The notes beneath the pieces were generated by a model that did no database searches, was not told the DNA's origin, and saw only the letters and a list, made by a program, of their open reading frames with translations. The translations under genes and the position numbers were made by a program. A DNA stretch of 55,297 nt. It comes from Gammaproteobacteria bacterium. GTDB lineage: Bacteria > Pseudomonadota > Gammaproteobacteria > Steroidobacterales > PWYM01. This document shows positions 16,702 through 23,802 of the stretch, in pieces; position 1 is the first letter of the stretch; each line of letters starts with the position of its first letter. The stretch is taken from positions 1 through 55,297 of the forward strand of contig JAFIFN010000006.1 in the NCBI GenBank assembly GCA_020832005.1, written 5' to 3'.

Positions 16702-17583
16702 TTGAGCGAATTATCGCTGTTCGAGCAGCAGCATTACACAGGTTCCGACGGCGTGCGGCTGCGTTACCGGCGCCGTCGATCCACTCCCGGGCCTGCGCAA
16801 CCGGCGCTGATGCTGCTTCACGGTGCGGCCAGCAACGGCACGCGCTGGTGGCATTTCGTTGAACATACCCGCCTGACTGACCGACTGCTGCTGGCACCGG
16901 ACCTGCGCGGCCATGGCGGCTCGGTGTGGCGGGGGCCCGCACGCATGCAGCACTGGCGCGAAGATCTTGCGGCACTGCTAGACCATGAGCGCAGCCCGCA
17001 TGCCGTGGTCATCGGGCACTGCCTGGGCGCCAACGTGGCTGCGCATTTTGCGGCGCGTCATCCCGATCGCTGTGCAGGGCTGGTGCTGATCGAGCCGATG
17101 CTGCGCGTGGCGCTGAGCGGACAGATGGCGCGTCTGCGCTGGGCAGCGCCGCTGCTGGATATCGCCGCACGATTCATTTCCGTGGCCAATCGCCTGGGCA
17201 TCTATCGCCGCAGGCTCGCGCAGGTCGATCTGCGCGAACTGGATCGGCCGGTGCACGCAAGCACTGCCGAGGGCAAGGCACCGGAGCTGCGTACCCATGG
17301 TTCGCTGCGCCACGATGTGCGGGTCGTGCCGGTGGCCCAGCTGCTGGCAAATTTCGTGGAGCTGGTGCGTCCGTTGCCAGTGTCGGGACTGACCATGCCC
17401 TGCCTGGTGATTCAGGCCAGTGGGCGGCGCATGACCGATGCTGCCCTCACGCGCGAGCTGCTCGCGCAGCGCCTGCCGCAGGCCGAGTTCATCGAGCTGC
17501 CCTCGGAGCACTGGATTCCGACAACTCACCCCGAGCGACTGTGTCAGCTGATCGATGACTGGGCGTCGGGCCTGCGATCCTAG
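16702..17583 (+). CDS. Alpha/beta fold hydrolase with a Cys nucleophile elbow
   Basis: LLHGA (oxyanion), PDLRGHGGS, VIGHCLGA, C-terminal H (SEHW). The start is uncertain (16651, 16690 or 16702). Confidence 0.85.
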   Translation: MSELSLFEQQHYTGSDGVRLRYRRRRSTPGPAQPALMLLHGAASNGTRWWHFVEHTRLTDRLLLAPDLRGHGGSVWRGPARMQHWREDLAALLDHERSPHAVVIGHCLGANVAAHFAARHPDRCAGLVLIEPMLRVALSGQMARLRWAAPLLDIAARFISVANRLGIYRRRLAQVDLRELDRPVHASTAEGKAPELRTHGSLRHDVRVVPVAQLLANFVELVRPLPVSGLTMPCLVIQASGRRMTDAALTRELLAQRLPQAEFIELPSEHWIPTTHPERLCQLIDDWASGLRS

Positions 17584-18752
17584 CCAGGTTTCCCGTCGGG
17601 CCGTGGCCCGGTGAGAATGCTCCAGTACAGCCCCAGAAACAGGCCGAATGCGCCGATCCAGGCGATGCCGGATACGGCCAGAGCCCACCGGTAGTCCAGC
17701 AGGGCAAGCGCGGAGCCCACGCGAAGTACGGCGGCTGCCGTGATCAACAGATAGATCCAGACCGCCCCCGGCGGCAGGACCAGCGCCCGACCGGTATGAC
17801 CCAGCGCGACGCGCGTCATCACACCCAGCAGCATCGTAGCCATCGCGCCAACGCCGGCGGCATGCAGCCAGGCCACATCAGGCACGCCGGCCATTGACAG
17901 CGACAGGCCTCTGAGCAGCAACGCGATGATGATCCACGCGTAGCCCAGGTGCAGAATCCACAGCAGCGGATTACGCCAGCAGTGCCAGCCCGACCAGCCG
18001 ACCAGCCGCAGCATGTTGGCAAGCGCGGCGAGCAGCGCCAGCGCGCCCGTCGTCACGCCGTGGCCGATCAGTTCGCTGATGGCCAGCGCCACGATGCTGA
18101 TGATCGCCACTGCGTCGATGACAGGGTGGCTGCGCACGACGCGCCGCTCACGCCCCTGCTGCGCCAGCCAGTTGCCGGAGAAGCTGGGAATGATGCGCCC
18201 GCCGATGAGTACGATCAGCAGCAGCACCAGGTACACGCCAAGCAGCTGTGCATGACGCGCAAGCATCGCATCGTCCAGCCAGATGCCTGCGTGGCTGAAT
18301 GCGCACACCACGGTGAGCACGAGCAGCACCGCCACCATGACAAGATTGCGGTGGTTTCCGGCGCGGATGATCACCACGGCGCAGTAGGCGGTGAGCACGG
18401 CGAGAAAACCCACATCGAACACGACCGCCACGGCGCCCGGCACACTGTGTGTCAGCCACATTGACAGTCGGGCGATCACCCACAGACCCACCAGCGCGGC
18501 AAGCCCGCGGCCACGCAGTGCGGGCCTGCCGGTCCAGTTCGCCATCGCGGTCAGCATGAAGCCTGCGATCGCGGCGGGAATCAGCCCGAAGAGGATCTCA
18601 TGGGCATGCCAGCGCAGGGGCGAGATCTCGCCTGTGACCGGCCAGCCCAGGAACAGCAGGCCGAGCCAGCCCAGCAGCAGGGCCACCGCATACAGCGCGC
18701 ACAGCAGGAAGAAGGGTCGAAAGGGGTAGCTCAGTACGCTGGTCGTTGGCAT
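17580..18752 (-). CDS. nnrS: NnrS family NO-response membrane protein
   Basis: [64 protein letters not shown]-terminus. Confidence 0.95.
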
Positions 18753-18916
18753 GCCGTGGTTCTCGTCAGGATCAGGTGGGTGGCTTGCACGCAGCGCGCG
18801 ACGCAGTTTCAGTTCAGTCAGATACGCGGAATGTGCAGTGCAACAAGTCTGCGTGCCTGCACATTGCCCGCGATACTTCGGAAATTACTGATGACGGGGG
18901 CAGCGTATTGTTAAAA

Positions 18917-23334: not shown

Positions 23335-23364
23335 CTGCGACAGGCGGCCGTATGCTTATCTGCC

Positions 23365-23802
23365 TTATGCGTGGGCGGCCAACAGTCGCCGGAGTTTGCG
23401 CTGTGAACGTGCGATGTCTGCCACGCTGTACTCACTCAGGACGGCGAGAAACGCTGCCAGGGCGCGCCGAAATGTGCCCTGCAGCCCGCAGGCACCGGTG
23501 ATGATGCATTCATTCGTATCCGGATCGAAACACTCCACCAGCGCCATGTCGTCTTCGAAGGCGCGCACCACATCGCCGACGTTGATCGCCTCGCTTGCGC
23601 GCGCCAGCCGCAGGCCGCCACTGCGGCCCTGGAGCGTTTCCGCAAACCCCAGAGCACCGAGGCGCTGAACCACCTTCATCAGGTGGTTGCGCGAGATGTC
23701 ATAGGTCTCGGCGATTTCGCTGATCGTACACAGTCGATCCTCATTGAGTGACAGATAGATCAATGTACGCAAGGCGTAGTCGGTCTGTCGGGTCAGGCGC
23801 AT
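23365..23802 (-). CDS. nsrR: Rrf2-family NO-sensing repressor NsrR
   Basis: MRLT..TDYALR.LIYL, ISRNHLMKVV, GRSGGLRLA, and three Fe-S Cys in VECF...NEC.....C.L. Confidence 0.92.
   Translation of the reverse strand: MRLTRQTDYALRTLIYLSLNEDRLCTISEIAETYDISRNHLMKVVQRLGALGFAETLQGRSGGLRLARASEAINVGDVVRAFEDDMALVECFDPDTNECIITGACGLQGTFRRALAAFLAVLSEYSVADIARSQRKLRRLLAAHA

Follow-up and report, generated by a model that had tools for sequence, protein, structure and literature searches.

A stretch of 55,297 nucleotides from a gammaproteobacterial contig, called the window here, carries the nitrite reductase gene nirS directly before a gene for a TonB-dependent outer-membrane receptor. The NirS protein is of the heme d1 type and keeps its cofactor pocket intact. 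The genes for heme d1 synthesis that were searched for are missing from the genome. The gene pair is conserved in related bacteria, its receptors form a clade of their own, and the pair lies on an insertion together with control elements of the denitrification type. The explanation favored here, with slightly more confidence than doubt, is that these organisms are heme d1 auxotrophs. The nirS-linked receptor, derived from the heme receptor PhuR, would bring external heme d1 into the periplasm, where NirS would be loaded with it.

An earlier sequence-only reading of the window had proposed the same module and knew of no description of the arrangement. A literature search, with most subscription journals and supplements outside it, likewise found no description of heme d1 uptake, of d1 auxotrophy or of a nirS-linked TonB-dependent receptor. 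In the portions available, PMC8756737 and PMC11651109 mention heme d1 only in passing.

A d1-Type Nitrite Reductase

The window NirS is a long form of the enzyme. Its domains follow in the order signal peptide, extra N-terminal cytochrome c domain, heme c domain and d1 beta-propeller. Residues 177-715 align end to end with the structures of Pseudomonas aeruginosa NirS (5guw and the 1nir set) at 852 bits, with a likeness of approximately 70%, and the identity to characterised NirS proteins is approximately 60-70%. The profile of the eight-bladed d1 beta-propeller (PF02239, Cytochrom_D1) is matched with 468 bits from position 2 to position 368 of its 368 positions.

Residues of the active site can be followed by means of the P. 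aeruginosa numbering, which was checked on the alignment to the structures. Tyr10, the CxxCH motif with His51, Met88, Arg156, His182, Arg198, Arg225, His327, His369 and Arg372 are present in the window NirS and in 32/32 long-form sequences. For Tyr10 and the four arginines, a role at the heme sites is taken as background. The heme roles of His51, Met88, His182 (the proximal d1 ligand), His327 and His369 (distal) are those given in the accessible part of PMC8756737. Since all the tested residues are kept in every long-form sequence, the d1 chemistry seems to be under purifying selection, and NirS is a d1-type enzyme rather than a relic.

The extra N-terminal domain (approximately 18959-19500) resembles the tethered cytochromes of the three-domain copper nitrite reductases 2zoo and 3ziy, with 83-88 bits. 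Its CxxCH motif is also kept in 32/32 long-form sequences. This fused domain is probably a built-in electron donor. The same long-form nirS is found in two d1-producing genomes, G109 and G136.

The window NirS has a lipobox-like segment, LVSFAAC, and a lipoprotein tethered beside the receptor was considered. This idea was dropped, as only part of the homologues share such a segment and the rest have plain signal peptides. A second class of Cytochrom_D1 proteins, scoring approximately 403-405 bits with frames of approximately 531 residues, occurs in a few genomes of the family designated f15 (G108:C8:30414, G136:C27:128987, G361:C152:23580 and G265:C261:1429). Some f15 genomes have this second class without NirJ.

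Absence of Heme d1 Synthesis Genes

The assembly that contains the window consists of 278 contigs, totals 4.18 Mb and is 94.46% complete. In the whole assembly, nirS is the sole match of the PF02239 profile. The best score for NirJ (TIGR04051) is 42.4 bits against a cut-off of 515.45, and PF17805, the profile for NirD, NirL, NirG and NirH, has no match. A tblastn search of the assembly with NirC, F, D, L, G, H, J and N from the clusters of G136 and G109 returned only nirS itself, for NirN, and a generic radical S-adenosylmethionine (radical-SAM) gene, for NirJ. NirF, NirN, NirJ, NirDLGH and NirC were not found in this assembly; nirM and nirE were not searched for.

Positive controls were provided by the two d1-producing genomes. 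NirJ reached 639 bits in G109 and 600 bits in G136, and each genome gave four PF17805 matches. PF17805 was detected in 4/4 control genomes versus 0/22 high-quality relatives with an orphan nirS, 11 of them single-contig assemblies. Among 401 genomes sampled from the order to which the window belongs, NirJ exceeds its cut-off in two.

The sequence-only reading had seen no d1-synthesis genes within the window. The absence now extends to the whole assembly for NirF, NirN, NirJ, NirDLGH and NirC, and the genome-wide search for a d1 pathway that it had suggested yielded none, by PF02239, TIGR04051, PF17805 or tblastn. A NirJ-like radical-SAM gene of 158.8 bits (cut-off 515) was seen at G320:C117:1772-2758, in a genome with a nirS-receptor pair.

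A Receptor of the PhuR Family

Among NCBIfam models, the receptor is best matched by TonB-hemin (TIGR01785), with 239.8 bits under a cut-off of 316.85; TIGR01786 gives 227.1 bits under a cut-off of 323.75. A profile of 11 members of the receptor family, termed A1, matches the structure of PhuR (8the) with 523.5 bits over its full length, 20-717 against 38-774. The next-best solved match of this profile is ShuA, with 181.7 bits. By these comparisons the receptor can be placed in the PhuR heme-receptor family.

Two motifs of heme receptors, FRAP and NPNL, are defined around loop L7 in the accessible part of the PhuR preprint (10.1101/2023.08.01.551527). In the window receptor, loop L7 is flanked by a FRAP-like YRSP and an NPNL-like NPDL. 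The A1 family has the consensus GFRAPP...IPNPDL, in which R508, P510, N531, P532 and L534 are invariant.

The residues that hold the heme iron tell a different story. According to the same accessible text (10.1101/2023.08.01.551527), the heme-iron ligand of PhuR is Tyr529, and earlier biochemistry implicated Tyr519 and His124. The residues aligned with these three in the window receptor are Val, Asn and Gly, in that order. Across the 11 sequences of the A1 family, Asn is invariant at the position of Tyr519, and only 2/11 have Tyr at the position of Tyr529. Because the PhuR ligand residues are replaced, the receptor would be derived from a heme receptor without holding its own ligand in the manner of PhuR. 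Such a replacement is expected for a changed ligand. After the signal peptide of the receptor lies the segment LQTIVVTATR, which resembles a TonB box.

In a tree of 80 receptors, the 24 that are adjacent to nirS (23 from named loci, and the window) form one clade together with two that are not, with a support of 100 in the SH-like approximate likelihood ratio test (SH-aLRT). The sister clade consists of 17 receptors from Lysobacteraceae and Steroidobacter without nirS, and PhuR-like receptors of Pseudomonas stand further out. The neighborhood of the sister clade was considered as a guide to the ancestral ligand. It proved uninformative: an aldo/keto reductase, DUF6607 and an EamA transporter were all that stood beside the receptor. 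The DUF6607 gene follows the sister-clade receptor in two inspected loci (L039:10407-11381 and L031:3247-4380).

Distribution of the Pair

The order sample of 401 genomes was searched for Cytochrom_D1 at a threshold of E<=1e-25, and matches of at least 430 bits were taken as the NirS class. A Cytochrom_D1 match is found in 129/401 genomes, with exactly one match in 110 of the 129. In 68 of the 120 NirS-class genomes an A1-type receptor lies within 6 kb of nirS. The receptor precedes nirS in 52 of these 68 genomes, the two genes are convergent in 11 and divergent in two, and nirS precedes the receptor in three, the window included. In seven more NirS-class genomes the receptor lies elsewhere: once approximately 10 kb away on the same contig and otherwise on other contigs, several of these at contig ends. 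No receptor was found at E<=1e-80 in the remaining 45/120. Receptor matches above approximately 800 bits nearly all adjoin nirS, and a paralogue group of 590-735 bits does not.

The pair is also found in public sequences. nirS stands beside the receptor in 23/80 named loci, among them loci of metagenome-assembled genomes of Woeseiaceae, Lysobacterales and Steroidobacteraceae, of Pseudidiomarina marina PIM1 and of Marinicella marina S1101. When the neighborhoods of 21 loci were clustered, nirS and the receptor were the sole families common to all. The next commonest neighbors were a Crp/Fnr regulator (8 loci), an AlgE-like barrel right after nirS (7) and the quinol-type NO reductase qNor (6). 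The neighborhoods of these 21 loci have in common no hemin ATP-binding cassette (ABC) transporter, no heme oxygenase and no other gene for taking heme into the cytoplasm or breaking it down, which fits a periplasmic destination for the ligand.

Outside the order, the picture in a class-level sample is different. Each of the 46 D1-positive genomes there has two or more Cytochrom_D1 genes, the nirS frames span approximately 580-630 residues, and the receptor was found at E<=1e-60 in 0/46. The comparisons across genomes to which the sequence-only reading pointed now have answers. The adjacency is conserved, in 68/120 genomes of the order and in 23/80 named loci, and in four gene arrangements. An anti-correlation between the receptor and d1 synthesis is seen: the receptor is absent from the 46 genomes outside the order, all with two or more D1 genes, and NirJ is present in only 2/401 genomes within it. 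Finally, the phylogeny places the nirS-linked receptors in one clade (SH-aLRT 100) within the PhuR family. These outcomes agree with the predictions of the sequence-only reading, and neither of its refuting conditions that are open to computation, a complete d1 pathway elsewhere in the genome or a lack of conserved adjacency, came true.

Some pairs seem to decay together. In G087 (C1:630741-634296) nirS has in-frame stops and the receptor is truncated, and in G082 (C3:76109-78871) a nirS fragment accompanies a receptor. G071 (C8:1723388-1725518) and G098 (C2:205005-207109) have an intact nirS next to a receptor gene broken into two parts. An AlgE-like barrel (PF13372, 410-460 residues) was seen in a scan with hidden Markov models directly after nirS in 6/20 named receptor loci (L016, L022, L025, L041, L058 and L067).

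Control of the Pair

The spacer between nnrS and nirS contains a palindrome (Table 1) that ends 21 nucleotides before the nirS start codon and has two mismatches to the NsrR search pattern. Its core, ATGTAT-N5-ATACAT, occurs once in the 4.18-Mb assembly. The geometry of AAGATGTATGCAAAATACATTAT was judged against what we take to be the NsrR consensus. The NsrR box that the sequence-only reading saw in this spacer can be kept as a putative site: a palindrome of NsrR-type geometry is there and is unique in the assembly, and the match depends on that presumed consensus.

The regulator that would act on this site is the product of the convergent gene, a protein of the Rrf2 family. Read from the translation, it has Cys91, Cys99 and Cys105 in a C-X7-C-X5-C arrangement. 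It scores 154.4 bits with the RirA model (NF008886, cut-off 193) and 128.8 bits with the NsrR model (NF008240, cut-off 182). The name nsrR, given to the gene earlier, is thus borne out in part. The Rrf2 family, the three cysteines and the NsrR-like operator agree with it; the NsrR score below its cut-off and the higher RirA score do not. The protein is likely a repressor acting on the operator before nirS. Judged by its protein sequence alone, it may sense either nitric oxide (NO) or iron.

Fur boxes had not been obvious at first sight, and none came to light on a closer search: no Fur-like box with up to five mismatches was found in the nnrS-nirS spacer, and none with up to four mismatches across the 21 loci. 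In 8/21 loci, the 430 nucleotides before the receptor contain an FNR/DNR box that has one mismatch or none, compared with a locus-wide density of 0.05 per 430 nucleotides. FNR/DNR-like boxes precede nirS in seven of the 21. The earlier suggestion that the receptor responds to NO or nitrite rather than iron is supported by the DNR/FNR or NsrR-type boxes and by the lack of Fur boxes, and is weakened by the regulator, whose best model is RirA.

The Four-Gene Island

The pair in the window is part of a block of four genes (Table 1). The order and strands are as first described, with nnrS divergent from nirS, followed by the receptor and a convergent Rrf2-family gene. The overlap of the nirS stop codon (21104-21106) with the receptor start codon (21106-21108) in the sequence TGATG, where one A is common to both, also stands. 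It is proposed that the receptor gene is translationally coupled to nirS through this overlap. The nnrS product is a heme/copper membrane protein of NO-stress regulons, and its NnrS domain spans the whole protein.

Table 1. Features of the four-gene block, in window positions.
Feature	Position	Strand	Size	Evidence or context
Island (nnrS, nirS, receptor, rrf2)	17574..23841		6.27 kb	Between alpha/beta hydrolase gene and methyltransferase gene
nnrS	17580-18752	-	390 aa	PF05940 342.9 bits, residues 6-384 of 390
NsrR-type operator (putative) AAGATGTATGCAAAATACATTAT	18915-18937		23 nt	Palindrome: 6-bp inverted repeat, 5-nt spacer
nirS, long form	18959-21106	+	715 aa	PF02239 468 bits, PF13442 78.2, PF00034 69.7
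TonB-dependent receptor	21106-23334	+	742 aa	Plug PF07715 82.9 bits, barrel PF00593 146.1 bits
Rrf2-family regulator	23365-23802	-	145 aa	PF02082 125.4 bits; convergent with receptor

The genes around the block are not tied to nitrogen metabolism. Those on the left encode a phosphorylase, an acetate kinase and an alpha/beta hydrolase; to the right lie a methyltransferase gene and one for an ABC component of the betaine type. G006, the closest congener (approximately 81% DNA identity), has position 17573 joined to position 23842 with 41 nucleotides between, so that the hydrolase and methyltransferase genes are adjacent. Because the flanks adjoin there, the four genes are a 6.27-kb insertion. 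nirS and the receptor were each found in 0/6 other genomes of the same genus. The block was acquired horizontally, with enzyme and receptor moving together as an island.

The same two flanking genes are 17-18 kb apart in two further genomes, G001 (C77) and G004 (C57). The site is thus a variable spot, as other DNA occupies it in these genomes. Contamination or mis-binning of the contig was considered and rejected, because both flanks of the island are syntenic with the congener at approximately 81% identity.

Matches to the stretch also occur in bioreactor metagenomes, from which this DNA may itself derive, and in one lake-water metagenome; the libraries with a small share of matching words, X6-X8, carry no habitat claim, and gaps in the cover by X6 are left out of account. 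Two contigs of X6, a freshwater metatranscriptome library, are identical to 18723-18897 (the nnrS-nirS spacer) and to 21152-21413 (the 5' part of the receptor gene). They are not used as evidence of expression, since carry-over of DNA is possible and the word share is only 0.08.

Neither qNor nor cNorB was found in the assembly, and the four COX1-family genes present are all O2 reductases of the CtaD or CcoN types. A globin or flavohemoglobin was likewise not found there. The lack of nor genes, first noticed around nirS, therefore holds across the whole assembly for qNor and cNorB. NnrS would be the one protein nearby to deal with the NO that this bacterium forms.

A Proposed Model for Heme d1 Salvage

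In the proposed model, the Rrf2 protein would repress from the single operator before nirS. Nitrosylation of its iron-sulfur cluster would free the nirS-receptor operon, and the divergent nnrS would probably be released together with it. NirS would then be exported and would receive its two c-type hemes from the cytochrome c maturation system of the host. The fused N-terminal cytochrome c domain would take the place of a separate donor such as NirM.

The receptor would meanwhile capture free heme d1, or dihydro-heme d1, released by denitrifiers that produce it. The dihydro form comes into consideration as an alternative ligand because NirN is also missing. Delivered to the periplasm, heme d1 would enter apo-NirS there, and neither an inner-membrane transporter nor a cytoplasmic step would be needed. 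The island would in this way be a self-contained, NO-responsive nitrite-reduction kit for a bacterium unable to make heme d1.

A wider form of the model treats heme d1 as a traded public good. The sampled order, together with Woeseiaceae, Marinicella, Pseudidiomarina and Lysobacterales, would then consist of d1 auxotrophs with a functional long-form NirS and a dedicated salvage receptor, and the kit would move between genomes as a 6-kb island. We put the chances of this wider form at even. In Woeseiales, nirS is transcribed in sediments, as reported in the accessible part of PMC7451513.

Evidence against Salvage and Alternative Explanations

Several observations weigh against the salvage model. 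One comes from the family f15, where 45/68 genomes have a D1 match and the A1 receptor clade occurs in 0/68. In ten inspected orphan-nirS loci of f15 (L096-L105), an AlgE-like barrel was found after nirS in 8/10, a distant TonB-dependent receptor flanking nirS in 4/10, and one or the other in 10/10. The PhuR-like clade is therefore not the sole partner of orphan nirS, and what these loci have in common may not be heme d1. f15 widens the theme to an orphan nirS with an outer-membrane transporter, and it also shows that such a combination can do without the PhuR-like clade. Exceptions are also seen among the receptors of the clade itself. G109 has a full nirCF-DLGH-J-N cluster and nevertheless has nirS followed by the receptor, and in G110 and at the loci L024 and L033 a receptor with a high score is retained although nirS is not nearby.

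Other reservations concern the comparisons and the premises. The anti-correlation is confounded with phylogeny, because one order is compared with the rest of its class, and shared ancestry could produce the same contrast in receptor content. The large receptor search scored two first-look candidates per genome. The absence of d1-synthesis genes in the genome of the window covers the 94.46% of it that is assembled. The window may be under iron control, because the Rrf2 protein has RirA as its best model and lies below both cut-offs. An NO-forming use of the enzyme is unexplained in a genome without NO reductase or flavohemoglobin. Free heme d1 is assumed to be available at usable levels in the habitat. 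Both the identity of the ligand as heme d1 and an activity of NirS through its import are read from context.

Four other explanations were considered. The receptor may be an ordinary importer of heme b or iron. Its co-expression with NirS would then reflect the additional heme or iron that an enzyme with three hemes and anoxic growth under NO stress require, and the source of heme d1 would be unrelated. In favor of this, PhuR, which imports heme b, is the closest solved relative of the receptor family; TonB-hemin is the best-scoring NCBIfam model; the regulator of the island scores best on the iron sensor RirA; and the genomes with sister-clade receptors have no nirS adjoining them. We nevertheless consider such an importer unlikely. 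Fur boxes are lacking in the 21 loci and DNR/FNR boxes are present in eight, conserved neighbors include neither a hemin ABC transporter nor a gene for heme degradation, and the heme-iron ligands of PhuR are not kept. Canonical denitrifiers have an equal heme demand and lack the receptor (0/46), and the missing d1 pathway would be left unexplained. That pathway is the starting point of another explanation, in which the bacteria make heme d1 through a pathway that has yet to be discovered and use the outer-membrane proteins next to nirS for something else. Approximately 118/120 NirS-class genomes are without NirJ, a very large group to rely on its neighbors, and some of its members are isolates with closed (single-contig) genomes. 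An unseen route is still a rather improbable solution, given that neither the 21 loci nor the ten f15 loci show a conserved set of several enzymes next to nirS, that the 6.27-kb island entered a nirS-free genus with no biosynthetic gene aboard, and that both d1-making genomes of the order use the canonical cluster.

Outer-membrane barrels of two unrelated kinds accompany orphan nirS (the AlgE-like kind in 8/10 f15 loci and 6/20 named loci), which raises the question of whether receptor and AlgE-like barrel pass nitrite, NO or another small anion for the periplasmic NirS, rather than a cofactor. AlgE-type pores are lined for anions, which would suit this role. General porins already pass nitrite, however, and we know of no TonB-dependent receptor that carries it. 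The receptor belongs specifically to a heme-receptor family, and canonical nirS genomes would gain equally from such a passage yet are without the receptor. We hold this very unlikely. Least to be expected is a NirS that works without heme d1, whether as a scaffold or non-catalytic protein or with a different tetrapyrrole occupying the d1 pocket. The d1 genes searched for were not found, and the genome is also without NO reductase and flavohemoglobin, as such a protein would allow. Against it stand the tested d1-pocket and catalytic residues, kept in 32/32 sequences, the approximately 60-70% identity to characterised NirS, and the qNor gene near the pair in 6/21 loci.

Comparison with Known Systems

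The salvage model can be set beside several known arrangements. Canonical nir clusters, such as nirSMCFDLGHJEN of P. aeruginosa and nirCFDLGHJN in G136 and G109, encode the same enzyme with identical residues at the heme c and d1 sites. They resemble the receptor-linked loci in their DNR- or NsrR-type control and, for some loci, in an nnrS or qNor neighbor. They differ in that the genome of the window has no NirF, NirN, NirJ, NirDLGH or NirC that could be found, has a receptor in the operon, and has a NirS with an extra cytochrome c domain and no separate donor.

PhuR, the TonB-dependent heme/hemoglobin receptor of P. aeruginosa (8the), is homologous to the window receptor over its full length, with a Plug domain, a barrel of the 22-strand type and FRAP/NPNL-like motifs. 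Unlike PhuR, the window receptor is without the heme-iron ligand residues, without neighbors like phuSTUVW and without a Fur box, and is linked to nirS instead.

Conceptually, the closest parallels appear to be scavenging of pyrroloquinoline quinone (PQQ) by PqqU and copper supply by NosA/OprC. PqqU (YncD) of Escherichia coli, also a TonB-dependent receptor, takes up PQQ for apo-glucose dehydrogenase, an enzyme that faces the periplasm, in a bacterium that does not produce the cofactor. Here too there would be an apo-enzyme without synthesis of its cofactor and a TonB-dependent receptor that supplies the finished cofactor to the periplasm. The cofactor and the receptor lineage are different, and nirS and its receptor form one operon on an island in which they move together. 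NosA/OprC is a TonB-dependent copper receptor tied to the maturation of nitrous oxide (N2O) reductase in Pseudomonas stutzeri. It would share with the nirS-linked receptor the provision of a prosthetic group for a periplasmic denitrification enzyme from the outer membrane. OprC, however, carries a metal ion and not a tetrapyrrole, and is only distant kin, with approximately 71 bits over the C-terminal barrel.

Cobamide auxotrophy offers a further likeness. With BtuB, a cofactor of the corrinoid/tetrapyrrole class is likewise a public good taken up through a TonB-dependent receptor, and non-producers are widespread. Vitamin B12 must also cross the inner membrane, through BtuCDF, whereas the d1 pair would need no such step and encodes none nearby.

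Implications

The standard marker gene by which denitrifiers are counted is nirS. In the sampled order, it is found in 129/401 species, and a capacity for heme d1 synthesis, as judged by NirJ, in only two. If the salvage model is true, such gene counts overstate the number of autonomous denitrifiers, and a large share of environmental nirS would stand for nitrite reduction that takes place only beside d1 producers. Many of these bacteria might then show no denitrification in pure culture, for want of a growth factor.

Heme d1 would also join the finished cofactors, such as B12, PQQ and heme b, that are scavenged through TonB-dependent receptors, and a PhuR-like receptor without heme-iron ligands would gain a natural ligand. 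In sediments, lakes and bioreactors, nitrite reduction and the release of NO and N2O would hinge on a cofactor exchange that has gone unmeasured.

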